From NCBI GenBank assembly GCA_963739455.1, contig CAVUAK010000003.1, forward strand, positions 224,001 through 288,000: a stretch of 64,000 nt of DNA, given 5' to 3'. The position numbers and the translations under genes were made by a program. The notes beneath the pieces are model-generated. The model was not told the origin of the DNA, did no database searches, and worked only from the letters and a program-made list of their open reading frames with translations. This DNA is from an uncultured Gemmatimonadales bacterium. GTDB taxonomy: Bacteria; Gemmatimonadota; Gemmatimonadetes; Gemmatimonadales; GWC2-71-9. Each line of letters begins with the position of its first letter. The first letter of the stretch is position 1. Positions 12,174 to 28,613 of this stretch are shown here, piece after piece.

Positions 12174-12244
12174 CGTCAAGCACTCTTGACGTAAATAGTT
12201 TCTGACACCAAGTTGACGGTGTCGGATGTGGCTGCCGCTTGACA
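12174..12244. promoter_or_regulatory. Cluster of PpsR/CrtJ boxes in the divergent bchF / aerR promoter
   Basis: CGTCAAGCACTCTTGACG (12174-12191), CGTAAATAGTTTCTGACA (12190-12207) and perfect TGT-N12-ACA TGTGGCTGCCGCTTGACA (12227-12244). Confidence 0.8.
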
Positions 12245-12321
12245 GGCGCCCGTTTGACGTCCATTTCAGACGCTGCTCACGAAGGAGTTCGCCCCACACC
12301 GGTGTTTCAGGAGGGCGTCCC

Positions 12322-13149
12322 GTGCCGGATCTCTTTTTCGGCGACAATTCCTCAATGACGGCCATGGTGGCGGCCAGCATTTCCCGCACAGCCAGGTCGC
12401 TGGCCAGGCGGGCGCCCCCACCGCCGGCTGAACCGGCCCTACCGGTGGATGTCTCGGAGGTGATCCCCGAGGATGTCCGGCGGTGGGCGTCGATGGCGGA
12501 TCAGGAGGCGGAACAGTGTGTGTGGCGGTTGCTGCAGCGGGGAATGACCGCGGAGGAGGTTTGCCTCGACGTGCTGACCACGGCGGCGCGACGGCTTGGG
12601 ACGCTCTGGGTCGAGGACCGCTGCACCTTCGTCGATGTCACGCTAGCCGTTACCCGCTTCCAGAACATCACTCACCGCCTCGGGCCGCACTTCAACAGTG
12701 TTGCCGAGCCGGGCTGCCGGGGCAGGGCACTGGTGGGCTCGGTTCCCGGTGAGCAGCACACCTTCGGTCTCAGCATGGTGGCGGAGTTCCTGAAGCGGGA
12801 CGGATGGGATGTTGTGCTGGCCGATGCGTCGCGCGACACGGCGGCCTTTGTGGCGCCACTCGCGGACAGCTGGTTTGACGTCGTGGCGATCTCGGCGGCC
12901 AACGACCGCGCCGAGAAGGGGCTGACGCGACTGCTGTCGAGCATCCGGCGCCGTGGACGGAACCACCAGGTGCGCGCCATCATCGGCGGAAGACTGGTCC
13001 AGGATCGGGATGGGCTGGTGGGGAGGGTGGGGGCCGATGGCTGGGCGGAAGACGCGAAGGCGGCGGTTGAACTGGCCCGTTCGCTAGGGCAGGCAACGCC
13101 ACGCACGCGGGGCCGGCGGGAGAAGGTGCAGGTAGACCGCACTTCTTGA
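12322..13149 (+). CDS. aerR: AerR/PpaA cobalamin-binding antirepressor/photoreceptor
   Basis: ARRLGTLWVEDRCTFVDVTLA helical domain and PGEQHTFGLSMVAEF (E-x-H-xx-G B12 motif); directly upstream of ppsR; GGAGG RBS before GTG 12322 (start uncertain). Confidence 0.88.
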   Translation: MPDLFFGDNSSMTAMVAASISRTARSLARRAPPPPAEPALPVDVSEVIPEDVRRWASMADQEAEQCVWRLLQRGMTAEEVCLDVLTTAARRLGTLWVEDRCTFVDVTLAVTRFQNITHRLGPHFNSVAEPGCRGRALVGSVPGEQHTFGLSMVAEFLKRDGWDVVLADASRDTAAFVAPLADSWFDVVAISAANDRAEKGLTRLLSSIRRRGRNHQVRAIIGGRLVQDRDGLVGRVGADGWAEDAKAAVELARSLGQATPRTRGRREKVQVDRTS

Positions 13150-13169: not shown

Positions 13170-14648
13170 ATGAGTCGGTTAGCTAAGCCGTTCGGCGTTC
13201 GAGTTGACACCGTGAACGAGGTACCCAATCAGGCAATGACGTCGATCCTGACCGCAGCTTCGGATATCGCCCTTGTGCTTGATCGTGCCGGAGTCATCCG
13301 GGACATCACGCTGGGGCAGTCCGATCAGCCACTTGTTGAGTCGAAGGCGTGGCTAGGTCACGGCTGGATCGACACCGTTACCATCGAGTCCCGCGCGAAG
13401 ATCACCGACATGCTGGCCGAGGCAGCGTCGCAGGGTGTTTCGCGACGTCGCCAGGTCAATCACGTGTCGGCAAGCGGTGCCGACATTCCGATCGTCTACA
13501 CCGCCGTGCGCATGGACGAGGCGCCCGGCAAGGTGGTGGCGATCGGCCGCGACCTGCGGGCCGTCTCCGCCCTGCAGCAGAGCCTGGTGGAGGCGCAGCA
13601 GTCGCTCGAGCGCGACTACTGGCGGATGCGCCACATCGAGACGCGCTATCGCCTGCTGTTCCAGGTGTCGACCGAAGCGGTGCTCATGATCGACGCCGGT
13701 ACCCAGAAGGTGATCGAGGCGAATCCTGCGGCGGCACAGCTGTTCGACCAGCCCGTCAAGCGCCTCGTCGGGCGGACCTTTCCCTTCGATATCGAGACGG
13801 CCAACGAGCCGGCAGTCGCCGAGCAGCTCGCGACAGTGCGTTCGCATGGGCGGGCTGATGATCTTGTCGTGCGGCTGCCCAACTCCGGCCGCAGCGTCAC
13901 GTTGTCGCTGGCGCTCGTTCGGCAGGACACCTCTACGCTCTTCCTGGTGCGGTTGCTGCCGGTGGTCGATCAGTCGGGCCCGGATGCGGGTCCTGCCTCG
14001 GCCGGTGCCGCCTTCAAGCTGCTCGAGTCACTGCCCGATGGGTTCGTCATCAGCGACGCGGACGGCCGCGTGCTGATGGCCAACCGCGCGTTCCTCGACA
14101 TGGTCGAACTGCCCACGCTGGAGCAGGCGCGTGGCCGCCTGCTGGGTCAGTGGGTGGGGCGCCCCGGGGCGGACGTCGGTCGGCTGCTCGCGACACTGCG
14201 TGAGCACGGTGTGGTGCGCCTGTTCGGCACCGCCCTCCGCGGCGATCTGGGCTCCTCCAGTGAGGTCGAGATCTCGAGCGTCGCCCTGCTGGAAGCCGCC
14301 GACATGCAGGTGGGTTTCCTCATTCGCGATGTTGGCCGCCGGCTCCTGCCGAGCCCCCGCGGCGCGCGCGACCTGAGCCAGGCGGTGGAGCAACTGACTT
14401 CGCTCGTGGGTCGCGTATCGCTCAAGAACCTGGTGCGCGACACGACGGACCTGGTGGAGCGGCACTTTATCGAGGCGGCGCTCGAGACCACCGATGACAA
14501 CCGGACGTCGGCCGCCGAGGTGCTCGGTGTCAGCCGGCAGAGCCTGTACATGAAGCTGAAGCGATACGGCCTGGGCGCCGATGCTGCGGATGCATCGAAC
14601 CAGGACGGCACGAACAACAAGGGCCGGAAGAGCACGCCGAAGAACTGA
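13170..14648 (+). CDS. ppsR: PpsR/CrtJ photosynthesis transcription regulator (3 PAS + Fis-type HTH), cysteine-free
   Basis: ASDIALVLD..G.I, WIDTVTIESRAKI, Q-linker LVEAQQSLERDYWRMRHIETRYRLLF, LVGRVSLKNLVRDTTD, DNRTSAAEVLGVSRQSLYMKLKRYG. Confidence 0.95.
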   Translation: MSRLAKPFGVRVDTVNEVPNQAMTSILTAASDIALVLDRAGVIRDITLGQSDQPLVESKAWLGHGWIDTVTIESRAKITDMLAEAASQGVSRRRQVNHVSASGADIPIVYTAVRMDEAPGKVVAIGRDLRAVSALQQSLVEAQQSLERDYWRMRHIETRYRLLFQVSTEAVLMIDAGTQKVIEANPAAAQLFDQPVKRLVGRTFPFDIETANEPAVAEQLATVRSHGRADDLVVRLPNSGRSVTLSLALVRQDTSTLFLVRLLPVVDQSGPDAGPASAGAAFKLLESLPDGFVISDADGRVLMANRAFLDMVELPTLEQARGRLLGQWVGRPGADVGRLLATLREHGVVRLFGTALRGDLGSSSEVEISSVALLEAADMQVGFLIRDVGRRLLPSPRGARDLSQAVEQLTSLVGRVSLKNLVRDTTDLVERHFIEAALETTDDNRTSAAEVLGVSRQSLYMKLKRYGLGADAADASNQDGTNNKGRKSTPKN

Positions 14649-14673
14649 GCCCGCGGCCACTCGGTCGCGGGCT
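14648..14673 (+). terminator. GC-rich hairpin after ppsR
   Basis: AGCCCGCGGCC-ACTC-GGTCGCGGGCT followed by a weak U tract. Confidence 0.5.
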
Positions 14674-14689
14674 ATTGCTTATCCCATAG

Positions 14690-14707
14690 TGTAAAGCCTT
14701 CATGACA
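14690..14707. promoter_or_regulatory. PpsR box overlapping the bchG start codon
   Basis: TGTAAAGCCTTCATGACA = TGT-N12-ACA. Confidence 0.85.
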
Positions 14708-15622
14708 GTAGCTGACGTACTAACCGTCACACAGTCAGGGCAAAGCGTCAGGACTCCCGCGCCGCGTACGGTGCTGGAGCTCTTCAAGCCGGTCACCTGG
14801 TTCCCGCCGATGTGGGCATTTGCCTGCGGCGTGGTCTCGTCAGGCGTGCCGCTGGCCTCGCACTGGGGCCTCTTGGCGCTTGGGGTCGTGCTCACGGGGC
14901 CACTCGTCTGCGGCACCAGCCAGGCGGTGAACGACTGGTTCGACCGGCACGTGGATGCGATCAATGAGCCGGGCCGTCCGATTCCGTCGGGGCGGATGCC
15001 GGGCACATGGGGGCTGACACTCGCGCTCGCGGGCACGCTCATCTCGATGATTGTCGGCCTCCAGCTTGGCCGCGCCGCCGCTGGTGCCACCGCACTGGGG
15101 CTTCTCCTGGCGTGGATCTACAGTGCGCCGCCGCTTCGGCTCAAGAACAACGGCTGGTGGGGCAATGCCGCGGTCGGTTTCAGCTACGAGGGCCTCGCGT
15201 GGGTGACCGGTGCCGCGCTGATGCTGAACGGCGCCGTGCCGCGTCCCGCGATCCTTGCCGCAGCGGTGCTCTATAGCATCGGCGCGCACGGCATCATGAC
15301 ACTGAACGACTTCAAGTCGATCGAGGGCGACCTCCGCATGGGCATCGGCTCGTTGCCGGCGCGCCTCGGCCCCGATCGTGCCGCGAAGGTTGCCTGCCTG
15401 GTGATGCTGGTGCCGCAGGTCGTCGTCATTGCGATGCTTGCGCTGACCGCGCACCCCGTTGCCGCGTTCCTCGTGACGGCGGTCGCCGTGGCCCAGGTGC
15501 CGCTGATGCGCCGGCTCCTGCAACGGCCCCGCGAGCTGGCGCCGTGGTACAACCAGACCGGTATCTCCCTCTACGTGTCGGGCATGATGGTCACGGCCGT
15601 GGCGCTGGGTTCGGTCTCGTGA
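14702..15622 (+). CDS. bchG: Bacteriochlorophyll synthase
   Basis: LFKPVTWFPPMWAF, SQAVNDWFDRHVDAINEPGRPIPSGR, GAHGIMTLNDFKSIEGD. Confidence 0.97.
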   Translation: MTVADVLTVTQSGQSVRTPAPRTVLELFKPVTWFPPMWAFACGVVSSGVPLASHWGLLALGVVLTGPLVCGTSQAVNDWFDRHVDAINEPGRPIPSGRMPGTWGLTLALAGTLISMIVGLQLGRAAAGATALGLLLAWIYSAPPLRLKNNGWWGNAAVGFSYEGLAWVTGAALMLNGAVPRPAILAAAVLYSIGAHGIMTLNDFKSIEGDLRMGIGSLPARLGPDRAAKVACLVMLVPQVVVIAMLALTAHPVAAFLVTAVAVAQVPLMRRLLQRPRELAPWYNQTGISLYVSGMMVTAVALGSVS

Positions 15623-16929
15623 ACCAGCTCTCATGGACCGGGGTGGCGCGACTTGGCCTGGTGCAGGCCTCGATCGGTGCCGTCGTCGTGCTCATGACAT
15701 CAACGCTCAACCGGATCATGGTGGTCGAGCTCGGGCTCGCAGCCGCGATTCCCGGTGCCCTCGTGGCACTGCACTTCGCGGTGCAGATGTTCTTCCGGCC
15801 ACGCCTCGGTTTCTGGTCGGATGCTGGTGGCCGGCGGACGCCGGTGATCCGGATGGGCATGGCGCTGCTCGGCTTCGGTGGGGCGGATGCGGTGGCGGCA
15901 ATCGCGCTCGTGCCGACCCACCGCGCGCTGGGCCTCGCGGCGGCAGCACTGGCCTTCGTCGTCATCGGCCTGGGCGTGAGTGCCGCGGGGACGCCGTTGC
16001 TGGCCATGCTCGCCGACCGGGTCAGCGGCGAGCGGCGCGGGCGGGCGGCGGCGATCGTGTGGCTGATGATGATCGCCGGGTTCGTGGTCACGACGCTCGT
16101 GGTTGGCCGGCTCATCGATCCGTTCTCGTTCTCCCGCCTCATGCTGGTGGCCATCGGCGTATCGGTGATGGCGTTCGTGGTGGCCTGGGTGGCGCTCGCG
16201 GGCCTCGAGGGCGCCGGACGGGCACCGATGGTGATGCCGTCGTCCGATTCATCGTCCTTCCGGTTCGCCCTCTCGACGGCATGGCGCGATCCAGCCACGC
16301 GCCGCTTCGCGATCTTCGTGTTCGTGGCGATGCTGGCGTACAGTGCGCAGGACCTGGTGCTGGAGCCGTTCGCTGGCAGCGTGTTCCAGCTGACGCCCGG
16401 GGAATCGACCAGGATCACGAGCGTCCACCAGGGCGGGATGCTCGTCGGCATGGTCCTCACCGCGGTGCTCTCGGCACGCTGGGGCAGCCTGCCGCGCTGG
16501 GCCGCGTTCGGCTGCGCTGCGTCGGCGCTGGCATTCGTGGCGCTCGCCATCTCTCCGCTGGTTGGCACCGTCGGGGCGCTCCGCGGGAGTGTCCTGGCAC
16601 TGGGCCTCGCAAACGGGACGTTCGCCATTGGCGCCATCGGCAGCATGATGGTGCGCGCGCGCGGCGGCCAGGCGGGGCTCCGGATGGGCGTCTTCGGTGC
16701 GGCGCAGGCCATCGCGTACGCGATCGGGTCGTTCATCGGCGCGGCAGGCAGCGACATCGGCCGCGCGGTCTCCGGGTCCGATGCGCGGGGCTATATGTCG
16801 GTGTTCGCGGCGGAAGGGGTGCTGTTCCTCGTGGCTGCGGTGCTGGCGTGGGATTCCTCGAGTCGCAAGCGCGAGTCGCTGGTCGACTCACGGAACGGTG
16901 GTGATGCCCTCATGGCGTCGCTCGCATGA
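15619..16929 (+). CDS. pucC: PucC/Bch2-family MFS protein
   Basis: LSWTGVARLGLVQASIGAVVVL.STLNRIMVVE, SDAGGRRTP, AQDLVLEPFAG; GTGA overlap with bchG. Confidence 0.9.
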   Translation: MNQLSWTGVARLGLVQASIGAVVVLMTSTLNRIMVVELGLAAAIPGALVALHFAVQMFFRPRLGFWSDAGGRRTPVIRMGMALLGFGGADAVAAIALVPTHRALGLAAAALAFVVIGLGVSAAGTPLLAMLADRVSGERRGRAAAIVWLMMIAGFVVTTLVVGRLIDPFSFSRLMLVAIGVSVMAFVVAWVALAGLEGAGRAPMVMPSSDSSSFRFALSTAWRDPATRRFAIFVFVAMLAYSAQDLVLEPFAGSVFQLTPGESTRITSVHQGGMLVGMVLTAVLSARWGSLPRWAAFGCAASALAFVALAISPLVGTVGALRGSVLALGLANGTFAIGAIGSMMVRARGGQAGLRMGVFGAAQAIAYAIGSFIGAAGSDIGRAVSGSDARGYMSVFAAEGVLFLVAAVLAWDSSSRKRESLVDSRNGGDALMASLA

Positions 16930-18152
16930 CGGCACTCTTTCCAGTGCGCGGCCTCCCCACGCTCGATGCGGCGCCGCTGCCGCTTCCGCGTCATCGCGAT
17001 CTCTGCACCGACTGCGGCATCTCGCGCACGAGCGCGCCGGAGCGCTGTGGCCGTGCCTGCCAGTTCATCAACCCGCGCTACGCTGAGCTGGAACTGCAGG
17101 CCCATGGTCGCGCGCGCGATGCCGCGCGGGGCGATGAGGCGCTCTTCGGCACCTATCTCGAGATGCGCCGTGCGCGCCTGGCACGACGGTCGGCGGGCGC
17201 GCAGTGGAGCGGGATCACCACCCGCATCGGCGAGCAGTTGCTTGCGACCGGGGCGGTGCAGGCGGTGCTCGCGACGGCCGCCGACGCCTCCGATCGCTGG
17301 AAGCCACGCCCGGTGCTGGTGCGCGACGCCGCCGGGATGGCGGAGTGCCGTGGCATGAAGATGGGATTCTCGCCGGTGCTGGCACTGCTCGACGAGGTGG
17401 CGCGGCTGGGCCTCACGCGCATCGCGGTGATCGGTATCCCGTGCCAGGTGCATGCGTTGCGCGCGCTCGAGAAGGAACTCGGGCTCGAGAAGCTGTACAT
17501 CATCGGGACGCCATGCAGCGACAACACCACCACGGAGAATTTCCACTCGTTCCTGCGCCGGCTCACCCCGGAGCCGGAGCGTGTGACGTACTGCGAGTTC
17601 CAGCCCGACTACAACGTGGAGCTGCGGTTTGACGACGGTCGTGTCAGCCGGATCCCGTTCATCAAGCTGCCGATCGCCGACCTGCCGGCGGATTTCTTCC
17701 CGCTCACCTGTCGCGCCTGCTTTGACTACACCAACGCGCTGGCGGACGTGACGGTGGGCTACATGGCGGGGGCGGGCGACCAGTGGCTGATCGTGCGGAA
17801 CGCGCGCGGCCGCGAGCTCGTGGCGCTGCTGGAGGACGAGCTGGTGACCTCAGACCTCGGGTCAGGCGGCCATCGCCGCGCCGCCGTGCGTGGATTCCTC
17901 GGCAACCTGCAGCGCGGCGCCAACGGACTGCCGCTGCGCCGCGCCCCCCGGTGGGCCCGACCGCTGATCGCCTGGGCGATGCCGACCTTCGGCCCGCGCG
18001 GGCTGGAGTTCGCGCGGAGCCGCGTGGAGATGAAGCAACTGGAGGGGATTGTTGCGTTGCGGAAGCACCGGCCGCGGCGGCTGTTGCGGATGGTGCCTGA
18101 CTTCGCGTGGGCCACCGCGGTGCGATACGGACTGGCTGGGGGGAACGCATGA
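16926..18152 (+). CDS. bciB: Ferredoxin-dependent 8-vinyl (divinyl) reductase, FrhB-like
   Basis: CTDCGIS..CGRACQF, GAQWSGITT, GIPCQV, GTPCSDN and TCRACFDYTNALADVTVGYM Fe-S/FAD motifs of the BciB family. Confidence 0.88.
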   Translation: MTALFPVRGLPTLDAAPLPLPRHRDLCTDCGISRTSAPERCGRACQFINPRYAELELQAHGRARDAARGDEALFGTYLEMRRARLARRSAGAQWSGITTRIGEQLLATGAVQAVLATAADASDRWKPRPVLVRDAAGMAECRGMKMGFSPVLALLDEVARLGLTRIAVIGIPCQVHALRALEKELGLEKLYIIGTPCSDNTTTENFHSFLRRLTPEPERVTYCEFQPDYNVELRFDDGRVSRIPFIKLPIADLPADFFPLTCRACFDYTNALADVTVGYMAGAGDQWLIVRNARGRELVALLEDELVTSDLGSGGHRRAAVRGFLGNLQRGANGLPLRRAPRWARPLIAWAMPTFGPRGLEFARSRVEMKQLEGIVALRKHRPRRLLRMVPDFAWATAVRYGLAGGNA

Positions 18153-19339
18153 CAGAGCCGCAGGTTGACGTCCTGGTGGTCGGAGGTGGCCCTGCCGGGT
18201 CGACGGCGGCATGGGACCTGGCCCGCAAGGGACACTCCGTGCTCCTGCTCGACCGCGACGGGCGGGTGAAGCCGTGCGGCGGGGCGGTGCCACCGCAGTT
18301 GATGACCGAGTTCGACGTGCCGTCGTCGCTCCTGGTGAACCGGGTGGACTGTGCGCGCATGGTGTCGCCGGTGGGGCGAGCGGTGGATATCCCGATCGAG
18401 AACGGCTACGTCGGCATGGTCGATCGCGAAGTGTTCGACGAGTGGCTGCGGCAGCGGGCGGTGGCGGTGGGTGCCGAGCGGCGCACCGGCATCTTCACCG
18501 GGCTCACGACCAACGCCGATGGTTCCGCCACGGTGACGTATCGCGATGGTAATTCGCGCTCTGATCGTACCGTGGAGGTGCGCGCCCGCATGGTGGTGGG
18601 CGCCGACGGGGCACTGTCGGCGGTGGCCCGCACCGCGATTCCCTGTTCCAGGGATGCGCGGTTCGTGTTCGCGTACCACGAGATCGTGGAGTCACCCGCC
18701 TCCTGGAACACCGAGGAGGCAAGCCGCTGCGACGTGTACTACGACGGTGGCCTCTCGCCCGACTTCTACTCCTGGGTGTTTCCGCACGGCGCCACGACGA
18801 GCATCGGCACCGGCAGCATGATCAAGGGATTCGACATGCGCGGCGCAGTATCGCGCCTGCGCGAGCGCACCGGCCTGACGAGCGTCAGCACCATGCGCCG
18901 GGAGGGTGCTCCCATTCCGCTGGTGCCGCTCAAGCGGTGGGACAACGGGCGCAACGTGGTGCTTGCCGGCGACGCATCCGGCGTGGTGGCGCCGGCCTCG
19001 GGAGAGGGGATCTACTACGCCATGGCGGGTGGCCGTGCCGCCGCCGATGCCATCGACGCCGCGCTCGAGCAGCGGGATGCGCGCCAGCTGGCCAATGCCC
19101 GGCGCGCCTTCATGCGGCAGCATGGGCAGGTGTTCCGGGTACTCAGCATCATGCAACGCTACTGGTACAGCACGGACGGACGCCGGGAACGGTTCGTGGC
19201 CATCTGCCGCGACCGCGACGTGCAGCGCCTCACCTTCGAGGGTTACATGCACAAGCGCCTCGTGCGCGCGGAGCCACTGGTTCACCTCCGCATCTTCTTC
19301 AAGAATATCGGGCACCTGAGCGGCCTGGTGCCGGTCTGA
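18149..19339 (+). CDS. bchP: Geranylgeranyl-bacteriochlorophyll reductase
   Basis: DVLVVGGGPAGS, KPCGGAVPP, SPDFYSWVFPHG, GVVAPASGEGIYYA. Confidence 0.97.
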   Translation: MTEPQVDVLVVGGGPAGSTAAWDLARKGHSVLLLDRDGRVKPCGGAVPPQLMTEFDVPSSLLVNRVDCARMVSPVGRAVDIPIENGYVGMVDREVFDEWLRQRAVAVGAERRTGIFTGLTTNADGSATVTYRDGNSRSDRTVEVRARMVVGADGALSAVARTAIPCSRDARFVFAYHEIVESPASWNTEEASRCDVYYDGGLSPDFYSWVFPHGATTSIGTGSMIKGFDMRGAVSRLRERTGLTSVSTMRREGAPIPLVPLKRWDNGRNVVLAGDASGVVAPASGEGIYYAMAGGRAAADAIDAALEQRDARQLANARRAFMRQHGQVFRVLSIMQRYWYSTDGRRERFVAICRDRDVQRLTFEGYMHKRLVRAEPLVHLRIFFKNIGHLSGLVPV

Positions 19340-20232
19340 TGGGCGCCGCCACGCTACCGTCCCGGGCGATGGTGCAGGACGCCTCGCTCAAGGCGTTCGC
19401 CGCCGCGCACCTTCCGGCCGTCGAGCAGGGTCTCGCCGATGCCTGCGCCGGGCTTGCCGGGGCCTCGCCGCGCATGCAGCACGCGGTGCTCGATGCCGTC
19501 GATCCCAACGGCGGTGAGGCGCATCGCTGGCGCCCTCTGCTGGTGCTCGCGGCGGCCGATGCCTGTGGGACGGCGCCGCATCACGCACTCCACGCCGCGG
19601 TGGCGATCGAGCTGACCCACACGGCGTCGCTCGTGCTCGACGACCTCCCCTGCATGGATGACGCGCCGCTCCGCCGCGGTCGCCCGGCCACACACTGCCA
19701 GGTGGGCACGGCGCCCGCCATCCTCATCGCCGTGGGCCTGCTGGGTCGCGCGGTGGAGCTGCTGGGTCGCTCCCCCGGCAACGTGGCGCAGCTCTCGACC
19801 GAGTGGGGCGCGGCCGTGGGACTGCCGGGCATGGCCGGCGGCCAGGCCATGGACCTGCGCGACCGGGCCGGCGAGGCGCTGAGCGGCGATGCGCGGCGAC
19901 TCTATCGCCGGAAGACAACGGCACTGGCGGCGTTCGCCGCACGCGCCGGCGGGCTCGTGGCCGGCGCACCGACCAGCCTGCTGGATGCCCTGGGTCGCTT
20001 CGGCCATCACCTCGGCTGGGCCTATCAGCTTCGCGATGACGTCGCCGATATCGAGGAGGATGGTCGCCTCGTCGCGGTGGAACAGACGGCGGCACGACGC
20101 GCGCGCCTCGTGGTGCGTGCGGAGCGCGCGCTCCGTACCGGTGGATGGAGCCGGCCGGCCAGCGCCGAGGCGCTCGCGGCCGCGGCATGGCGCATTGCCG
20201 GCGTGACAGCGGTAGGGCAGCGTGCGCAGTGA
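19339..20232 (+). CDS. crtE: Geranylgeranyl diphosphate synthase (polyprenyl synthetase)
   Basis: First Asp-rich motif LVLDDLPCMDD..RRGRP, GMAGGQAMDL, second motif YQLRDDVAD; TGATG coupling to bchP. Confidence 0.85.
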   Translation: MGAATLPSRAMVQDASLKAFAAAHLPAVEQGLADACAGLAGASPRMQHAVLDAVDPNGGEAHRWRPLLVLAAADACGTAPHHALHAAVAIELTHTASLVLDDLPCMDDAPLRRGRPATHCQVGTAPAILIAVGLLGRAVELLGRSPGNVAQLSTEWGAAVGLPGMAGGQAMDLRDRAGEALSGDARRLYRRKTTALAAFAARAGGLVAGAPTSLLDALGRFGHHLGWAYQLRDDVADIEEDGRLVAVEQTAARRARLVVRAERALRTGGWSRPASAEALAAAAWRIAGVTAVGQRAQ

Positions 20233-20724
20233 TGCACGCGGACGCCTGGTGGTTCCCGGTGCTCCTGGCACTGGGGTGGGGCCTCGTGCTGGGTGCGGTG
20301 GGCGGTTGGCTGACCACGCTGGACGCGTGGTACCGTCAGCTGACGCTTCCCCGCGTGGAAGCCACCCGACTGGGCGTTCGGTCCGGTGTGGACGACGATC
20401 TTCCTCTGCGCCGGCACCGCATTCGTGCTGGCGTGGAAGGGCGCCGGCCAGTCGGGCATGTCGCGCAGTGCGCTCATGATCGTCTTCGTCGCGAACGGCG
20501 TGTGCAACATGCTCTGGAGCTGGCTCTTCTTCCGGCGGCACCGGCCGGATCATGCGTACGTGGAGTCGTACCTCCTCTGGATCTCCATCCTGGCCATGCT
20601 CATCGTCGCCGGGTCGATGTCGCCGTGGGGTTACCTGCTGATCGCGCCGTATCTCGTCTGGGTCACCATCGCCACGGCGCTGACGCGCGCCGTCGTGCGA
20701 CTGAATGGTCCCTTTACCGGGTGA
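20232..20724 (+). CDS. tspO: TspO tryptophan-rich sensory protein; one frameshift near 20350 (probable sequence error)
   Basis: Removing one C from CTTCCCCGCG restores WYRQLTLPAWKPPDWAFGPVWTTIF...NMLWSWLFF...LIAPYLVWVTIA. Confidence 0.88.
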
Positions 20725-20728
20725 CTGC

Positions 20729-22015
20729 GTGCTGATCTCCGTCGCACTCGACTTCCGGCAGGCCCCGATCACGGTTCGGGAGCGCTACTTCCTCTCCGAC
20801 GCGAGGGTGGCGGCGCTCTATGATGCGCCGCCGTCACCACTGGTGCGGGAGCTGGCGCTGCTGTCCACGTGCAACCGGCTCGAGCTGTACGCCTGGTCGG
20901 AGGCCCAGTCGCCGGGCGCGCTGGAACAGGCGTGGTGCGAGCTGGTGGATCGCTGGGCGGGTCAGGACGGGGATGAGCGCGACGGCCTCGCGGCGCTGGT
21001 GGTGCGCCGGCACGGCGACGAGGTCGCATCGCACCTGCTGCGTGTGGCATCGGGCCTCGAGTCACAGGTACTGGGCGACTCGCAGATCCTCGGGCAGGTG
21101 CGGCAGGCATACCGGGACGCGTCCCGCGCGGGCATGGTGGGCACGGCGTTGCATCGGCTCTTCGGTGCGGCCCTGCACGCGGCGAAGCGGGTGAAGCACG
21201 AAACGGGTTTGGTGGGAGGGCGCCACTCGGTGGGTGCTGAGGCGGCGTCGCTCGCCGCGCGGCGGCATGGGCCGCTCGCCAAGCGCCGCTGCATCGTGGT
21301 CGGTTGCGGCAAGACCGGTGAGCGGGCGGCGCGCCAGCTGGTCAAGTTCGGCGTCGCCGATCTCGTGCTCATCAACCGCAGCCTGCCGCGTGCGGAAGTG
21401 CTCGCGCGCGACCTGTGGGGCAGGGCCGCAACGTTCGACCGGCTGCATCGTGAACTGGCCCGGGCGGACATCGCCATCATCGCCACGAGCGCGGAGCAGC
21501 CTCCGGTGCGGGCCGCGTCCCTCCGCTTCTGCCGGGATGATGCTGGCACGACGGGGCATCCACTCATGCTGATCGACCTCTCCCTGCCACGGAACGTGGA
21601 GCCCGAGGTCGGGGGGCTGCCGGGAATTACCTTGCTCGACCTCGACGCACTGCACCTGCCGATGGCGCAGGCGGAGGCGCTGCGGCAGGCGGCGGTACCG
21701 CTCGCCGAGGCGATCGTGCAGGAGGAGCTCGCGACGTACAGTGCATGGGTCCGGGCCGAGGTGGCGCGCGAGGCGCTGCGTCCCCTGCACCAGGCACTGA
21801 CGGCGGTGTGCCGCCGTGAGCTGGGCTATGTAGGGGCGAAGAGCGGGGCAGACCTCGACCGGGCGGCGGAACGGATCGTGGCGAAGCTGATGGCCCGACC
21901 GATGACGGTGCTGCGGGGTGCCACCGAGCGGGGCGAGTCGCTGGAGGCCGCGGCCCTCACGTTGCGTCACCTCTTCGGGGCGCACGGCCTGGCGATTCCC
22001 GCCGAAGCGGAATGA
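20729..22015 (+). CDS. hemA: Glutamyl-tRNA reductase (C5 ALA pathway)
   Basis: LLSTCNRLELY (catalytic Cys), HLLRVASGLESQVLGDSQILGQVRQAY, Rossmann VVGCGKTG, IDLSLPRNVE. Confidence 0.92.
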   Translation: MLISVALDFRQAPITVRERYFLSDARVAALYDAPPSPLVRELALLSTCNRLELYAWSEAQSPGALEQAWCELVDRWAGQDGDERDGLAALVVRRHGDEVASHLLRVASGLESQVLGDSQILGQVRQAYRDASRAGMVGTALHRLFGAALHAAKRVKHETGLVGGRHSVGAEAASLAARRHGPLAKRRCIVVGCGKTGERAARQLVKFGVADLVLINRSLPRAEVLARDLWGRAATFDRLHRELARADIAIIATSAEQPPVRAASLRFCRDDAGTTGHPLMLIDLSLPRNVEPEVGGLPGITLLDLDALHLPMAQAEALRQAAVPLAEAIVQEELATYSAWVRAEVAREALRPLHQALTAVCRRELGYVGAKSGADLDRAAERIVAKLMARPMTVLRGATERGESLEAAALTLRHLFGAHGLAIPAEAE

Positions 22016-22968
22016 GCGTGCTGCGCATTGGCACGCGAGCGAGCGCCCTGGCGCTCTGGCAGACCAACCGGGTGTGCGAAGCCCTTGCACGCCGGGGCCG
22101 TGCCACGGAGATCATCGAGATCAGCACCACCGGCGATATCCACGCCGAGGCGTCCATCGGGCAGCTGGCCGATCCCGCGCTGTTCACCCGCCAGCTCGAT
22201 GAGGCCATGCTGGCCTCGCGCATCGACCTCGCAGTGCATTCCCTCAAGGACCTGCCGACGCAACTGCCAGAGGGCATCCTGGTCGCCGCGGTGAGCGCGC
22301 GCGAGGACGCGCGCGATGCCCTGGTGACCCGCGGTGGGAAGTTCGCCGACATCCCGGCGGGCGGAACGATCGCCACCAGCAGCCTGCGGCGGCGCGCGCA
22401 ACTGCTCCGGGCCCGGCCCGACCTGGTGATTACCGAGATTCGCGGCAACGTGGGCACCCGGCTGTCCAAGCTCGAACAGAATGCAGGTTGGAGCGCGACG
22501 GTGCTGGCAGCGGCGGGATTGATACGGCTGGGCATGGAGGAGCGCATCTCGGAGCGGCTCTCGTTCGAGCTCATGCTCCCGGCGCCGGGACAGGCGGCGA
22601 TGGCAGTAACGGCACGCTTCGATGACATCAGCTCCATCGACGCGGTCCGCCGCGCGGTGCACGACGAGCGGAGTGCGCTCTGTGTGCAGGTCGAGCGGGC
22701 GATGCTGCATGACCTCGAGGGAGGCTGCGAGGTGCCCGTGGCGGCGCTGGCGGTCTTCGAGGATGCCAAGGGATGGTCGATGCGCTGCCGGGCGCGAGTG
22801 GCATCCCTCGATGGGCGGCAGGTGGCGGAAGCGGACGTGATCCGCTCCGTGCGCGGCAGCGATGATGCCGACACCTTCGGTCGCGAACTCGCGGCGGAGC
22901 TCCGCGACAAGGGTGCGGGACGCATCCTCGACGAGCTCGGGCTGGCGGCCGGCCGGGGGCGACCGTGA
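22012..22968 (+). CDS. hemC: Hydroxymethylbilane synthase (porphobilinogen deaminase)
   Basis: RIGTRASALALWQ, DLAVHSLKDLPT, TSSLRRRAQL, IRGNVGTRL, PAPGQA, LEGGCEVPV. Confidence 0.96.
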   Translation: MSVLRIGTRASALALWQTNRVCEALARRGRATEIIEISTTGDIHAEASIGQLADPALFTRQLDEAMLASRIDLAVHSLKDLPTQLPEGILVAAVSAREDARDALVTRGGKFADIPAGGTIATSSLRRRAQLLRARPDLVITEIRGNVGTRLSKLEQNAGWSATVLAAAGLIRLGMEERISERLSFELMLPAPGQAAMAVTARFDDISSIDAVRRAVHDERSALCVQVERAMLHDLEGGCEVPVAALAVFEDAKGWSMRCRARVASLDGRQVAEADVIRSVRGSDDADTFGRELAAELRDKGAGRILDELGLAAGRGRP

Positions 22969-23708
22969 GCAGCCGCACGCGCGTGATCTTCACCGGTGCC
23001 GCGGGAGCGCTGGCAGGACTCGGCGCCGCAGTGGAAGCGGACGGTGCACAGTTCACTGCGTGGCCGCTGATCTCGTTCACCGGGGCCATCGACCCGACGC
23101 TGCTCGAGGAAGCGCTTGGTCGGCTCGACCAATACGCGGCGGTGTGCATCACGTCGCCCCGTGCCGCCGGGGCGGTGGCGCGCGTAGTGGCTCAGCATGA
23201 CCTCGAACTGACTTTGGCACCGGTGGTGTGGACCAGCCCTGCATGCGAAGCAGTGCTGCGGCCGCTGTTTCCCCGGATCGAGGTGCTGCCGCGCGACCGG
23301 AGCACCGACGGTCTTGGCGCCGCGCTCGCCGAGACGATGCTGCGGCACGGGGTGCAGTCACCGGTGCTGTTTCCCTGCGGTGACCTGCATCGCGATGAGC
23401 TGGTGACTCGGCTCCGCGATGCCGGTCGCGTCGTGGACGTCGTGGAGGCGTATCGTACCGTCGTGGCCGAGCCGAGCCGCGCGCAGGCGGTGATGGCCGC
23501 TGCCGACGTCGTGGTGGTAACGAGCCCCAGCGTGGCGCGACTGATCGCGTCGCTCGAGCACTGCGAGCGACCCGCCCTCGTGGTGATCGGGCCCACCACG
23601 GCCGATGAGGCGACCCGCCACGGCTGGCCGCCGGACGCCGTGGCGGCATCACCCGCGGTCCCGGCCGTTGCGGCGGCCATTCACTCCTTGCTGCCGAGTT
23701 ATTCATGA
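22965..23708 (+). CDS. hemD: Uroporphyrinogen-III synthase
   Basis: CITSPRA, VEAYRTV, VTSPSV and IGPTTA motifs; located between hemC and hemE. Confidence 0.88.
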   Translation: MSSRTRVIFTGAAGALAGLGAAVEADGAQFTAWPLISFTGAIDPTLLEEALGRLDQYAAVCITSPRAAGAVARVVAQHDLELTLAPVVWTSPACEAVLRPLFPRIEVLPRDRSTDGLGAALAETMLRHGVQSPVLFPCGDLHRDELVTRLRDAGRVVDVVEAYRTVVAEPSRAQAVMAAADVVVVTSPSVARLIASLEHCERPALVVIGPTTADEATRHGWPPDAVAASPAVPAVAAAIHSLLPSYS

Positions 23709-24748
23709 TCGCGGTCGAGAAGAACGAACTGCTGCTGCGCGCATGCGCCGGCGAGCCAGTGGAGCGACCCCCGGTGTGGATGATGCGCCAGGCGGGACGA
23801 TATCTCCCGGAGTACCGCGCTGTGCGGGCGCGCAGCGATTTTCTCACCATGGTGCGGACGCCGGAGCTGGCAGTGGAGGTGACGCTCCAGCCGGTCGACC
23901 TCGTGGGCGTCGACGCAGCGATCATCTTCAGCGACATCCTGGTCATCCCGGAAGCGATGGGCATGCCGCTCACGGTCGATGAGGGCGTGGGCCCGCGCTT
24001 CGGCAGCACCATCCGCTCGGCCGCCGAGCTGGCGCAGCTGCGCGACCCGATGGCCGACGGCGCGCTCGCGTACGTCACCGACGCCATCCGGCTGGCCCGT
24101 CGCGAGCTGGACGGCCGGGTTCCCCTGATCGGGTTTGCCGGCGCGCCGTGGACGCTGGCCTCATACATGATCGAGGGCCAGGGCACCAAGAGCTTCAGCG
24201 TGGCGAAGCGAGTGCTGGTGCAGGCACCGGCGCTGGCGCACCAGTTGCTCGGCCGTCTTGCCGAAGCGGTGGGCCGGTTCCTCTGTGCCCAGGTCGAGGC
24301 CGGCGCCCAGGTGGTGCAGCTCTTCGATTCGTGGGCTGGCGCACTGGGTCCCGACGACTATCGCACCTTCGCGCTGCCGTACCTGGCGAAGGCGGTGGCA
24401 ATTGCACGGACCGCGGGCGCGCCGGTGATCGTGTTCTCCCCCGGCGCGGGCTGGGCGCTATCCGAAATCCTGGAAGCCACCCAGGCCGACGTCGTCGGGG
24501 TGGATTGGCATGTGGCACCCGCGACCGCGCGCCGGCAGCTTGGGCCGCAGCAGGCGCTCCAGGGCAACTTCGACCCATGCTGGCTCTATGGTACGCCGGC
24601 GGAGATCCGCCAGCGCGCGCATGCGATGCTCGATGCCTTCGGGACGGGGCCGCTCATCGCCAACCTCGGCCACGGCATCCTTCCCGATACGCCAGTGGCC
24701 AATGCTCGGGCGTTCATCGATGCGGTGAAGGAATGGCGCAGCCGATGA
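23705..24748 (+). CDS. hemE: Uroporphyrinogen decarboxylase
   Basis: PVWMMRQAGRYLPEYR, DAAIIFSDIL, IGFAGAPWTLASY, NLGHGI. Confidence 0.98.
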   Translation: MIAVEKNELLLRACAGEPVERPPVWMMRQAGRYLPEYRAVRARSDFLTMVRTPELAVEVTLQPVDLVGVDAAIIFSDILVIPEAMGMPLTVDEGVGPRFGSTIRSAAELAQLRDPMADGALAYVTDAIRLARRELDGRVPLIGFAGAPWTLASYMIEGQGTKSFSVAKRVLVQAPALAHQLLGRLAEAVGRFLCAQVEAGAQVVQLFDSWAGALGPDDYRTFALPYLAKAVAIARTAGAPVIVFSPGAGWALSEILEATQADVVGVDWHVAPATARRQLGPQQALQGNFDPCWLYGTPAEIRQRAHAMLDAFGTGPLIANLGHGILPDTPVANARAFIDAVKEWRSR

Positions 24749-25695
24749 ACGAGGTGCTGGCCGAGACCACGATGCGGCAACAGGCCACGGCCTGGGCGGC
24801 ATCGGTGCACGATGCTGCCACGGCGTTCTTTGCCAGCGCCGACGAGGGCGGGATGTTCGTCGAGGAGGTGTGGGAGCGTCCTGGCGGCGGTGGCGGCGTG
24901 TCCCGGCGCCTCGACGAGGGGAGCACCTTCGAGCGGGCAGGGGTCAACCGATCGGCGGTCGAGGGAGCGCTCGACCGGGAGCTCGCCGTGCGACTGGCGC
25001 TGCCACCTGAGGCCGCCGAGGGCTGCCGGTTCTTCGGAACTGGCGTGAGCCTGGTGGTGCATCCCCGGAGTCCGCGTATCCCCACGGTGCACCTCAATGT
25101 CCGCTATTTCGAGCTCACCAACCCCGCTGGCGACGTAATCGATGCCTGGTTCGGGGGCGGGACCGACCTGACGCCGACGTACCCGACGCCAGACGACGCC
25201 CGGCACTTTCATCGGGTGCTGGCGGAGACGTGTGCCCGCCACGATGCGGGGTATTACCCCAGGTTCAAGGGGTGGTGCGACCGGTATTTCCGGAACACCC
25301 ATCGGGACAACGAGGCGCGTGGTGTGGGGGGAATCTTCTTTGACCACCTGCGAGTGGCCGAACACGGATTTGAGCCGCTGATGGCGTTCGCGGGTGCGGT
25401 GGGTCGGGTGCTGCCCGAGGCCTATGGTCCGATCGTGGACCGCTGGCGCGGAGCCCCCTACGGCGAGTCCGAGCGCCGGCTCCAGCTGTTCCGGCGCGGT
25501 CGCTATGTTGAATTCAACCTTTTGCACGACCGGGGCACTACTTTCGGTCTCCAGAGTGGAGCCCGGACTGAGAGCGTCCTCATGAGCCTCCCCCCACTGG
25601 CACGGTGGGACACCGATGCCGCGATGGAGTCCGATGCCCTGGCCCAGGCGCTCCGCGCCATGCTCGTCCCTCAAGATTGGCTTGCCCCGACCTGA
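24745..25695 (+). CDS. hemF: Oxygen-dependent coproporphyrinogen III oxidase
   Basis: WERPGGGGG, GVSLVVHP..PTVHLNVRYF, WFGGGTDLTP, RGVGGIFFD, RRGRYVEFNL.DRGT.FGL, ESVLMSLPP. Confidence 0.97.
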   Translation: MNEVLAETTMRQQATAWAASVHDAATAFFASADEGGMFVEEVWERPGGGGGVSRRLDEGSTFERAGVNRSAVEGALDRELAVRLALPPEAAEGCRFFGTGVSLVVHPRSPRIPTVHLNVRYFELTNPAGDVIDAWFGGGTDLTPTYPTPDDARHFHRVLAETCARHDAGYYPRFKGWCDRYFRNTHRDNEARGVGGIFFDHLRVAEHGFEPLMAFAGAVGRVLPEAYGPIVDRWRGAPYGESERRLQLFRRGRYVEFNLLHDRGTTFGLQSGARTESVLMSLPPLARWDTDAAMESDALAQALRAMLVPQDWLAPT

Positions 25696-25700
25696 ATCTG

Positions 25701-25741
25701 CGTCATGTGTCTTGACATGACGGTGTCAACGCGGCATTACA
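25701..25741. promoter_or_regulatory. bphP upstream region: palindrome plus PpsR box
   Basis: CGTCATGT-N6-ACATGACG (25701-25722, contains TTGACA) followed by TGTCAACGCGGCATTACA (25724-25741, TGT-N12-ACA), ending 9 nt before the ATG. Confidence 0.8.
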
Positions 25742-25750
25742 TACGAGCCT

Positions 25751-28009
25751 ATGTCCGGTAACCATCCAAGCCCTGCCTTTGGCACGGCTGACCTTACCAA
25801 CTGCGATCGGGAACTCATTCAGCTCCCCGGCTCCGTTCAGCCGCACGGGGTCCTGCTGATCCTGCATCCTGAGCACCTGCGCGTCCTGCAGGCCTCCTCG
25901 AATGCCGAGGCGATCCTGGGTTCGTGGGGGGCATCGCCGCTGGGCAAGACCATCGATTCCCTGGACCCTGAGCTCGGTCTGCTGATCCGCCGCCTTCGGC
26001 ACAGCGACGAGCTGGCGGGGATCGTGCCTGCCGTGGCCCGTGCCGAGGATGAGAATGGGGTCCGGACGCTGGAGGCGATGATCCACCGGCTTCCCCGCGA
26101 GGGCATCGCCGTTGAGCTCGAGCCGGTGGCGCCCGACCCGGCAGGACGCTCGGCCGCTGAGGTGGCGCGGCAGGTATCCCAGATGCTCACCGATGGGATC
26201 GCTGCCATCAGCGTGGCGCCATCCCATGCGGCCCTGTATGGCGAGGTTGTGCGCGTCATGCGCGCCCTCTGCGGGTACGATCGCGTGATGGTGTACAAGT
26301 TTGATCCTGAGGGACACGGCGAAATCGTCGGCGAGGCGCGCCTCAACGACCTCGAGCCCTTCCTCGGCCTGCACTATCCCTCGAGCGACATTCCGCATCA
26401 GGCACGCGAGCTCTACCTGCGCAACCGGGTCCGCGTGCTGGTCGATGTCTCGTACCAGCCGGCGCAGCTCTTCCCGCGGCTCTCACCGATCACCGGAGCG
26501 GAAGTGGACATGTCGATGTCCTCGCTCCGCAGCATGTCGCCGCTGCACTTGCAATACCTCTCGAACATGGGTGTTCGCGCCACGCTGGTGACCTCGCTCG
26601 CCATCGGCGACCGGCTCTGGGGCCTGATTGCCTGTCACCACTATGCGCCCCGCTGGCTGCCGTACGAGGTGCGCGCCGCCGCCGGTATCCTGTCCGAGAT
26701 GGTGGCAGCGCGTCTTGCGGCTCTCGACAGCGTCGCGGCGACCGAGACGGAACACATCGTCCGCACCCTGGAGGACCAGGTGGTGGACTCGCTGGCTACC
26801 ACCGGCGACTGGCGCAATGCGCTGTTCGCCACGCCGCACCTGCTCCTGCAGACCGTGCGCGCGACCGGTGCTGCGCTGGTGCACGACGGGGCCCTCATCA
26901 CCACCGGCGAAGTGCCGTCGTCGGACGACATCCGGGCCGTGGTGCGCTGGCTGGAGGAGCAGCATCCCGGCGAGCCGGTGGTGCGAAGTGACGCGATGAG
27001 TCGCTCGGAGCCAACCCTCCGGCACATCGCAGGAGCGGCTGCCGGCGTGATGGCCATCGCGCTGTCGGCCAGGTCGCGAGACTACCTGCTCTGGTTCCGT
27101 CCGGAACAGCACCAGACGATCCGGTGGGCCGGTGACCCGCGCAAGCCGGTCGACCCCAATGACCCGAAGCAGCTGTCGCCGCGACGCTCCTTCGCGGTGT
27201 GGACCGAGGTGACGCGCGGCTCCTGCCGGCCGTGGACCGAGTCCGAAGAGGGCACGGCGCGCGCGATCCGCTCGTCGCTGGTGGACATGGTGCAGCAGGT
27301 GCAGGCGGTGCGGGTGCTGATCGCGCAGGAGCAGTTCTCGCGCATGATGCAGGTGGTGCAGCTCGCGTCCGAACCCACGCTCATCATGAGCCGCGCGGGC
27401 CAGGTCGTGCTGGTGAACGACGCCTTCCGGGCACTGCTGGGGCCGATGCCCACCGACCTGACGTCGGCCGAGGACCTGTCGCGGCTGCTGGGAGATGACG
27501 GCGCGGTGAACGCCATGCTCACGGCGGTGCGGGCGGAGCAGCGTCCGTGGGCCGGGGAGCTGCTCCTCACGACGCCGGACGGTGAGCGGGTGCCGCTCGC
27601 GGTGCGGGCTGATCCGGTGCCGGGCGATGACGGGATGGAACTGGGCTGCATCATCTTCGCGTCCGACGAGCGTCCGCGCCGGAAGGCGGAGGCGGCGCAG
27701 CAGCGCGTGCAGGACAGCCTGCTCGAGGCGCATCGTCGCTCGACCCGCTCCACACCCGTCGACGCGGACACGGCGCGCGGTTTCGGCGCGATGATGGATG
27801 CGATCCTGAGCACGGCGCGCCGTTCGTTCACGGACATCAGCGGCGAACCAGGAACGCACCCGCTGCCCTCGGCGCTGGCGAGCGTCGAGGACATGACGCG
27901 CCGCGCCGCCGCGATGGCGCTGCACCTCGAGGGGTATACGGCGGCGCGCCGCAAGCGGCAGTCCGTGGTCGTGAAGGATCCCGCTGGCGGGTCAGGGCAG
28001 CGCGGCTGA
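25751..28009 (+). CDS. bphP: Bacteriophytochrome, BphP1-type (PAS-GAF-PHY-PAS plus helical output, no histidine kinase)
   Basis: DLTNCDRELIQLPGSVQPHG (biliverdin Cys), YDRVMVYKF, YPSSDIPHQAR, LRSMSPLHLQYL, WAGDP..LSPRRSF; C-terminal PAS and about 100 aa helical tail without H-box or HATPase motifs. Confidence 0.93.
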   Translation: MSGNHPSPAFGTADLTNCDRELIQLPGSVQPHGVLLILHPEHLRVLQASSNAEAILGSWGASPLGKTIDSLDPELGLLIRRLRHSDELAGIVPAVARAEDENGVRTLEAMIHRLPREGIAVELEPVAPDPAGRSAAEVARQVSQMLTDGIAAISVAPSHAALYGEVVRVMRALCGYDRVMVYKFDPEGHGEIVGEARLNDLEPFLGLHYPSSDIPHQARELYLRNRVRVLVDVSYQPAQLFPRLSPITGAEVDMSMSSLRSMSPLHLQYLSNMGVRATLVTSLAIGDRLWGLIACHHYAPRWLPYEVRAAAGILSEMVAARLAALDSVAATETEHIVRTLEDQVVDSLATTGDWRNALFATPHLLLQTVRATGAALVHDGALITTGEVPSSDDIRAVVRWLEEQHPGEPVVRSDAMSRSEPTLRHIAGAAAGVMAIALSARSRDYLLWFRPEQHQTIRWAGDPRKPVDPNDPKQLSPRRSFAVWTEVTRGSCRPWTESEEGTARAIRSSLVDMVQQVQAVRVLIAQEQFSRMMQVVQLASEPTLIMSRAGQVVLVNDAFRALLGPMPTDLTSAEDLSRLLGDDGAVNAMLTAVRAEQRPWAGELLLTTPDGERVPLAVRADPVPGDDGMELGCIIFASDERPRRKAEAAQQRVQDSLLEAHRRSTRSTPVDADTARGFGAMMDAILSTARRSFTDISGEPGTHPLPSALASVEDMTRRAAAMALHLEGYTAARRKRQSVVVKDPAGGSGQRG

Positions 28010-28060: not shown

Positions 28061-28086
28061 GGACGGGGTCCCTCGGGACCCCGTCC
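28061..28086. terminator. Perfect 12-bp inverted repeat after bphP
   Basis: GGACGGGGTCCC-TC-GGGACCCCGTCC. Confidence 0.55.
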
Positions 28087-28592: not shown

Positions 28593-28613
28593 CGATTGCG
28601 CAGTGGGTGCGAG

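Follow-up and report, generated by a model that had tools for sequence, protein, structure and literature searches.

A cysteine-free PpsR, most likely of the PpsR2 lineage, and a candidate phytochrome antirepressor in a Gemmatimonadales photosynthesis gene cluster

PpsR and BphP in the photosynthesis gene cluster

The window analyzed here is a 64,000-nucleotide stretch of DNA from an uncultured Gemmatimonadales bacterium (assembly GCA_963739455.1, contig CAVUAK010000003.1, positions 224,001 to 288,000; G000:C3:224001-288000 in the nomenclature of this analysis, in which G and L numbers designate comparison genomes and loci, respectively, and G000 is the source assembly, a 3.6-Mb genome that is 83.7% complete). 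Its left part is a photosynthesis gene cluster, termed the island, which encodes the repressor PpsR (13170..14648, plus strand) and, at the cluster end, the bacteriophytochrome BphP (25751..28009, plus strand). An earlier sequence-only reading of the window had described a PpsR without Cys, a phytochrome ending in a PAS domain and a helical tail without kinase motifs, and a TGT-N12-ACA palindrome located 9 nt before the bphP ATG, and each of these features is present. The locus contains the parts of a phytochrome-repressor system, namely homologues of both proteins, a PpsR that is free of thiols, and operator-like sites. It is likely that this PpsR acts as a single Cys-free repressor of the PpsR2 lineage and that the kinase-less, BphP1-type phytochrome is its light-dependent antirepressor, itself probably repressed through a box in its promoter.

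From ATG 13170, PpsR comprises 492 residues, none of which is Cys, and has the domain order N-PAS, Q-linker (containing W151), PAS1, PAS2, and an intact Fis-type helix-turn-helix (HTH) with the canonical recognition helix GVSRQSLY at residue 453. It scores 469.6 bits against TIGR02040 (cut-off 275.4). An alternative TTG start at 13146 would add an 8-residue extension with one Cys; close orthologues begin at the equivalent of the ATG. The segment ERHFIEAAL begins at residue 430 and places F433 in the column that is occupied by Cys in the aerR-linked proteobacterial PpsR1/CrtJ proteins, the redox Cys being C420 in CrtJ (PMC5362033). Because the protein has no thiol, a C420-type redox switch is impossible. 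PpsR shares with PpsR1/CrtJ the position directly after aerR/ppaA, and has F433 where those proteins carry their redox-active Cys ahead of the HTH (C420/C424). The assembly yielded a single ppsR and a single phytochrome, and a search for a second ppsR returned none; no other candidate partner for BphP is therefore apparent.

BphP consists of 752 residues that form PAS_2, GAF, PHY, and PAS_9 (543-639) domains followed by an HOS tail, with no match to a kinase family. The chromophore residues Cys18, D213 (SSDIP), and PRRSF (477-481) are intact. The best PDB match is RpBphP1 (4GW9), which aligns over residues 6-646, including PAS9, with an E value of 8e-160, and Foldseek also places 4GW9 first. 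The HOS of RpBphP1 is absent from the solved structure, and the tail was compared with those of Bradyrhizobium ORS 375 and of betaproteobacteria. Its likeness to HOS, proposed in the sequence-only reading, holds in profile, shuffling, and structural comparisons. A hidden Markov model built from only 22 proteobacterial BphP1 tails matches it with an E value of 5.6e-7, whereas no other of the 33,899 open reading frames (ORFs) in the genome does better than 0.72; its score against the ORS 375 tail alone is attained by 0 of 2,000 shuffles; and it is colinear with the ppsR2-adjacent BphP of Bradyrhizobium sp. ORS 375 (L086) and the betaproteobacterial orthologues. In the AlphaFold model (pLDDT 81, pTM 0.74), the tail has three predicted helices (641-666, 672-697, and 706-741), an arrangement that agrees with the published hJ'-hJ-hK order of HOS (PMC6899989). 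Among family members, the tails of G201, G202, and G204/L124 share 46-54 of 87-89 residues with it. L016 was left out of BphP alignment A2. In a BphP tree, the protein falls within the PAS9-HOS clade and apart from kinase phytochromes with a Shimodaira-Hasegawa (SH) support of 100, a grouping that is partly expected from the shared C terminus in the alignment, and the BphP1 of the window family forms the earliest branch (SH 84). By its sequence and domain order (PAS-GAF-PHY-PAS9-HOS), BphP is a BphP1 orthologue.

The host can be placed as a Gemmatimonadales phototroph, since among named loci of identical gene order those nearest to it come from Gemmatimonadales metagenome-assembled genomes. 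The minus strand of the island carries lhaA, an acsF-like gene, bchM, bchL, bchH, bchB, bchN, and bchF, and the plus strand carries aerR, ppsR, bchG, pucC, a frhB-like gene, bchP, crtE, hemA, hemC, hemD, hemE, hemF, and bphP; puf, bchCXY, and hemB, named from their translations, lie upstream on the contig. The aerR/ppaA gene (12226..13149, plus strand; real start probably downstream of 12226) encodes a B12-binding antirepressor (Pfam B12-binding, 2.9e-16) that retains EQH, which we take to be the cobalamin-ligand motif. The bacteriochlorophyll and tetrapyrrole genes between ppsR and bphP (14702..25695, plus strand) are co-directional and abut or overlap at the inspected junctions, and their transcription may continue into bphP. 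An ORF at 20145-20735, between crtE and hemA, has no Pfam match and probably starts at an ATG that overlaps the crtE stop. No bchE was found in the assembly at its given completeness, consistent with an aerobic phototroph. Heme oxygenase is encoded elsewhere in G000 (C1:922075), and in L010, L020, L022, and L023 it is convergent with bphP. Among other antirepressors, no BLUF protein was found, and a LOV motif gave no match. A lipoprotein-like ORF and a TonB receptor (28596-30800), the latter a candidate for tetrapyrrole uptake, follow bphP; a strong G+C-rich hairpin lies at 28061-28086, ~50 nt past the bphP stop and near the right end of the island, where the terminator scan gave no call.

Lineage of the Gemmatimonadota PpsR proteins

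A scan of 401 Gemmatimonadota genomes identified ppsR in 31, including G000. Together with three genomes reached via bphP, these provide 32 full-length PpsR rows; the truncated L005, L062, and L122 and the frameshifted L043 were omitted from the counts and trees. Phe occupies the redox-Cys column in all 32, and nine of the proteins are entirely free of Cys. Among the 120 closest database homologues, the residue in this column is Phe in 114 and Cys in two, and 33 have no Cys whatever, which rules out a Cys loss peculiar to G000.

In a 68-row PpsR tree, one branch (SH 99) separates the aerR-linked PpsR1/CrtJ proteins from the Gemmatimonadota rows and every bphP-adjacent PpsR2, whether alpha-, beta-, or gammaproteobacterial. 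The same split is recovered at SH 99 in a 40-row mixture-model tree, obtained by a quick search with the Cys-motif columns removed. Also without these columns, a 221-row tree contains a 74-row clade (support 96) in which no protein has Cys at this site, as opposed to 135 of 147 outside it. An approximately unbiased (AU) test rejects a clade of Gemmatimonadota plus six beta- and gammaproteobacterial PpsR1 proteins (p 0.0002). When family f1 is constrained with all PpsR1, the AU test gives an uninformative p of 0.52, as the constraint only makes f1 the basal branch of the Cys-less group. With the region from residue 410 on removed, the window lineage stays with family f2 and the betaproteobacterial PpsR2 proteins at 99. 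These trees involve long branches, and their root is assumed to lie among PpsR1.

The sole aerR-linked PpsR of G000 is thus most likely, on phylogenetic grounds, a PpsR2-lineage protein. Its Cys-lessness appears inherited within that lineage and not lost locally, given the Phe common to all 32 rows and the grouping with PpsR2; the sequence-only reading, in which this PpsR had lost thiol sensing, is not borne out in this respect. A PpsR2-lineage repressor standing alone in the aerR-linked slot of PpsR1, phylum-wide among the genomes sampled, appears to be new. The proteobacterial PpsR2 proteins nest among those of the Gemmatimonadota, and a single clade for either group is rejected by AU tests (p about 0.013-0.015). 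This nesting and the earliest branching of the window family's BphP1 could mean that purple bacteria derived their ppsR2-bphP1-bphO add-on cassettes from a single-PpsR arrangement, a reading that we consider rather improbable.

Several relatives show other arrangements of ppsR. G018, of the same genus, has two copies of different depth (L008/L080 and L005/L079), one at 57% in a differently ordered cluster and one at 77% and orphaned, a pair that could reflect a second cluster acquisition or a binning mix. The hemB promoter leads directly into ppsR and then lipoprotein/TonB genes in G186, G486, and one G018 contig, and ppsR, with no photosynthesis cluster at that position, stands alone under a box-bearing promoter beside lipoprotein/TonB-receptor, hem, or heme oxygenase genes in L073 (G186), L224 (G486), L079 (G018), L075/L076 (G086), and L081 (G136). 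These contexts suggest a tetrapyrrole-related role of the lone ppsR after the loss of photosynthesis. In the beta-type bphP-adjacent PpsR2 proteins, the recognition helix is degenerate, with no SRQSLY, in 10 of 10 cases (L012:8579-9985, L013, L014, L016, L017, L019, L024, L041, L042, and L044); the L012 protein has no Pfam HTH_8, and three alpha/gamma-type PpsR2 rows lack such decay of the HTH. Judged by this motif, the beta-type proteins may have lost DNA binding and serve as adaptors through which BphP1 acts on PpsR1.

PpsR boxes and the bphP promoter

The PpsR box before bphP (25724..25741; none of the boxes is assigned a strand) overlaps the putative −10 element of a promoter-like sequence, TTGACA-N17-CATTAC (25712..25740, plus strand). 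Bare TGT-N12-ACA sites are not more frequent in the window than expected by chance (10 found, 6.3 ± 2.0 expected, with 7 of 100 shuffles reaching 10). Sites were scored with a matrix derived from 25 hand-picked intergenic boxes of other Gemmatimonadota, none of them from G000 or G092 and none from before bphP. On this independent matrix, the bphP box reaches 15.4 bits, which makes it the 11th best site of the genome; a site as good is present within 150 nt upstream in only 3 of 2,624 non-island ORFs, the starts of which are approximate. Within the island, sites are observed at the hemB (a pair), bchC (a pair), bchF/aerR (an imperfect pair), bchG, and bphP promoters, and the same five promoters are marked in G092. 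The box at 14690..14707 (19.4 bits, rank 4) heads the run from bchG through pucC, the frhB-like gene, bchP, crtE, hemA, hemC, hemD, and hemE to hemF. The divergent bchF/aerR promoter contains two imperfect boxes (12174..12207), scoring 8.1 bits at 12174 and 12.0 bits at 12190; the second is also found in G092 (11.8 bits), and the pair of G202 scores 15.3 and 18.2 bits. Outside the island, PpsR-like sites occur at G000:C3:134226 (19.7 bits), C1:2406646 (18.3 bits), and C1:1815498 (17.7 bits).

The bphP box is perfect in G092, in which two spacer positions differ, and in three near-identical metagenome contigs, and in L162 it has a single mismatch, the CGT variant, which G092 uses at hemB and bchG. 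In L010, L020, L022, and L023, where bphP likewise follows hemF, the best score is below 1 bit. Four more distant loci without the box still have the TTGACA/CATTAC spacing ahead of bphP, and an equivalent −35/−10 spacing is present in L010, L011, L020, L022, and L023; a consensus promoter scan made no call at bphP. Because the box is near-perfect in G092, the metagenome contigs, and L162 and absent from distant loci with the same gene order, it appears to be a genus-level gain and is probably a real operator. The placement of bphP inside the PpsR regulon by the sequence-only reading accordingly stands as far as the box itself looks real and has to be narrowed to the genus. In relatives, bphP may come under PpsR by read-through, as suggested by a 23-bit box before bchG in G202 and by the lack of a terminator-like site between hemF and bphP in the window.

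It is doubtful, although arguable, that BphP antagonizes PpsR while the box is a chance by-product of the conserved −10, with co-regulation only by read-through from the bchG promoter. The absence of the box in the four loci of the same synteny, the single palindrome at bphP where hemB and bchC have pairs, and the overlap of the ACA half with a conserved −10-like element all speak for this explanation and against a dedicated operator, and about eight sites outside the island that score as high as or higher than the bphP box, together with the terminator-free hemF-bphP interval, fit it as well. The rarity of such sites upstream of non-island ORFs argues the other way, as do the retention of the TGT half in G092 although the spacer has changed and the match between a box over the −10 and the mode of CrtJ at bchC (PMC5362033). 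Feedback on bphP would not be unique, since in 6 of 12 proteobacterial ppsR2-bphP operons a site of at least 20 bits is located near the operon start; at least three of these are shared with a divergent bchG. Most boxes before the betaproteobacterial bphP genes sit where a divergent crtI-like gene or bchC begins.

A proposed light-dependent circuit and its alternatives

Similar to the RpBphP1-RpPpsR2 pair from Rhodopseudomonas palustris and the BrBphP1-PpsR2 pair from photosynthetic Bradyrhizobium (PMC6899989), the locus combines a PAS-GAF-PHY-PAS9-HOS phytochrome without a kinase with a PpsR that has no HTH Cys, and a heme oxygenase in the genome and a link to the photosynthesis cluster are also shared. 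Wild-type RpPpsR2 is described as being without this Cys and controlled by light only (PMC6899989). The pairing of a Cys-less PpsR2 with BphP1 is already known and is the norm in Rhodopseudomonas. By analogy, the locus would be a variant that works like that system and departs from it in two features of organization: in the known systems ppsR2 directly precedes bphP, whereas here the two are 11.1 kb apart with bch and hem genes between them, and there redox control falls to an additional PpsR1 that has the Cys and is encoded next to aerR, whereas here no PpsR other than the PpsR2-lineage protein was found, and this one itself stands beside aerR. In addition, bphP has its own promoter-like element and box, unlike in those systems. 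With AerR-CrtJ of Rhodobacter capsulatus, the locus shares the aerR-ppsR order, the TGT-N12-ACA boxes, and the paired boxes at bchC (PMC5362033); it differs in having F433 for C420, no Cys anywhere, and an extra phytochrome input.

The clusters of Gemmatimonas phototrophica and G. groenlandica have the same order, with ppsR and ppaA/aerR inside and hem genes adjacent (PMC11406998, PMC7844134). The BphPs of G. groenlandica are listed as sensor histidine kinases, along with BphO (PMC7844134), and cluster expression in G. phototrophica is reported to be oxygen-insensitive despite ppsR and ppaA (PMC11406998). In the portions of these papers available, "cysteine" and "phytochrome" do not occur in PMC11406998, a PpsR cysteine is not mentioned in PMC7844134, and neither mentions a BphP1-type protein; the corresponding portions of PMC4263372, PMC8547001, and PMC12817894 have no phytochrome passages. 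In the literature covered, from which most subscription papers fall outside, no description of a BphP1-type protein or of the PpsR cysteine state in Gemmatimonadota was found.

In the proposed circuit, PpsR would repress the hemB, bchC, bchF/aerR, bchG, and bphP promoters. As in RpBphP1, biliverdin from the heme oxygenase would be bound at Cys18, and in Pr, the form that absorbs red light, the HOS helices would open, bind PpsR, and lift repression. The contact is probably with the Q-linker/PAS1 part of PpsR, with W151 as a candidate contact residue. Q-PAS1 is reported to be the minimal BphP1-binding fragment. A modelled contact is between HOS and the HTH instead (PMC6899989). Lifted repression would raise bphP expression as well, giving positive feedback, a steeper switch, and slower reversal. 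AerR with B12 would constitute a parallel, more widely kept input, with BphP1 as an optional add-on in the phylum. Oxygen could enter only indirectly; heme oxygenase and AcsF require O2.

The direction of the switch depends on the resting state of BphP. If BphP is bathy, far-red-rich shade would turn pigment synthesis on; if it rests in Pr, darkness would turn synthesis on and red light would turn it off. BphP has Leu207 at PASDIP-3, in place of Gln or Asn (Asn in RpBphP1 and L086), a +4 tongue that is one residue shorter than that of RpBphP1, and no Gly at PRxSF-8. All known bathy phytochromes are reported to have a +5 tongue, and bathy-associated traits are described as neither exclusive nor diagnostic (PMC12362586). 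The type 3, PAS9-only XccBphP (PDB 5AKP) shares the Leu and the PAS9 output, has no HOS and no PpsR link, and is bathy-like despite the Leu (PMC8612531); Leu207 alone thus leaves the resting state unsettled. A Pr-resting or mixed photocycle, with genes on in the dark and off in red light, is narrowly probable, and a bathy photocycle with the far-red-on logic of Rhodopseudomonas is quite possible. Since the sequence traits are compatible with either resting state, it would be premature to count on a near-infrared pair, and the suggestion in the sequence-only reading of a new near-infrared optogenetic pair is weakened: bathy-associated traits are lacking, and the light polarity could be inverted. 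A fuller form of the inverted logic, which we consider rather improbable, is a one-repressor, oxygen-blind switch in which Pr-resting BphP1 would keep PpsR off DNA in the dark and free it in red light, the bphP box latching the state. If true, it would be a phytochrome-based form of the "pigment made at night" behavior of aerobic phototrophs and would provide a red-off/far-red-on counterpart to BphP1-QPAS1. Two BphP1-like proteins, L129:1519-3618 (G264) and L130:581-2446 (G402), have lost the chromophore Cys, DIP, and PRxSF and kept PAS9-HOS, and their relative L127 (G419) has intact motifs; by these losses, the L129 and L130 proteins are candidate light-blind, constitutive antirepressors.

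Several observations weigh against the proposed circuit. With the region from residue 410 on removed, a branch of alphaproteobacterial PpsR2 and family f7 falls among PpsR1, at low support, and the PpsR and BphP trees are congruent only in part. No ferrochelatase (PF00762) was found in the assembly although heme oxygenase is present, which leaves the heme supply for biliverdin unaccounted for. Among the 30 ppsR-positive Gemmatimonadota other than G000, six have a BphP1-type gene (G092, G311, G419, G431, G264, and G402), four have only kinase-type phytochromes, and no phytochrome was found in 20. In all, 24 of the 30 have this PpsR but no BphP1. Of 20 that contain pufLM, 15 have no BphP1-type gene that could be found, three single-contig genomes (G273, G295, and G387) among them, and seven genomes without pufLM (G186, G486, G086, G136, G420, G458, and G328) have an orphan ppsR; hence this type of PpsR works without BphP1, and the view in the sequence-only reading that this PpsR had lost thiol sensing and come under BphP control is not supported.

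The same distribution favors an explanation that we nevertheless regard as unlikely, namely that AerR-B12 is the only input to PpsR, or that PpsR represses tetrapyrrole genes weakly and constitutively, and that BphP is a co-regulated passenger with another target, or a relic. The aerR gene is intact and adjoins ppsR, genomes without pufLM retain ppsR next to hem genes or a TonB receptor, and G. phototrophica has no BphP (PMC7844134), yet its cluster is transiently repressed in light (PMC11406998). A passenger or relic is less readily reconciled with the conservation of HOS within the family, the reported function of HOS in PpsR2 binding (PMC6899989), and the finding that in the 22 proteobacterial genomes compared both BphP1-type genes adjoin a ppsR2. 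Finally, it is highly improbable that BphP really partners with a further ppsR product missing from the assembly, in the manner of Bradyrhizobium: the incomplete assembly and the two ppsR of G018 would allow it, but G092 (97% complete, same island), G201, G202, and G204 have one ppsR over the cut-off each, the resident PpsR is already of the PpsR2 lineage, both G018 copies fall within the Cys-less clade or are closely related to it, and G018 yielded no BphP.

A further point against the circuit is that BphP1 occurs with only a Cys-bearing PpsR1 in five betaproteobacterial genomes, so that the Cys state is no predictor of partnership; as read from these sequences, Cys-lessness does not imply BphP control. 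These genomes (L217-L222, G1204-G1208) encode a BphP1-type protein and bphO together with an aerR-linked PpsR1 that has the Q-linker Trp, and a dual redox/light system with a single repressor is possible there. W151 is present in 99% of proteins inside the Cys-less clade and 16% outside, including 13 of 13 bphP-adjacent PpsR2 proteins, 31 of 32 Gemmatimonadota rows, and the PpsR1 of the five BphP1-bearing betaproteobacterial genomes, and is lacking in the PpsR1 of four two-PpsR genomes (G205, G669, G1052, and G208). It also occurs in both PpsR copies at five betaproteobacterial loci and, adversely for the proposed contact, in the PpsR1 of G946, G952, and G1129, where no BphP1-type gene was found. 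W151 as an exclusive mark of BphP1 partners is refuted by these cases; it is a better candidate marker than the Cys state, as a lead and not as proof.

If the proposed circuit is correct, the locus is predicted to extend BphP1-type control beyond Proteobacteria and would remove the complication of two PpsRs. It offers a natural BphP1/PpsR pair that shares only ~40% identity with that of Bradyrhizobium and may differ from it in resting state, and such a divergent pair would help to locate the binding interface, which is still unsolved, and to build orthogonal optogenetic tools. The phylum-level result, a probable PpsR2-lineage repressor in the slot of PpsR1, is the most valuable one, above the circuit of a single genome. 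From Phe in 15 of 15 family-f2 rows, the PpsR of G. phototrophica is predicted to have Phe in the redox column, which may be a candidate one-residue explanation for the oxygen-insensitive photosynthesis genes of that species.

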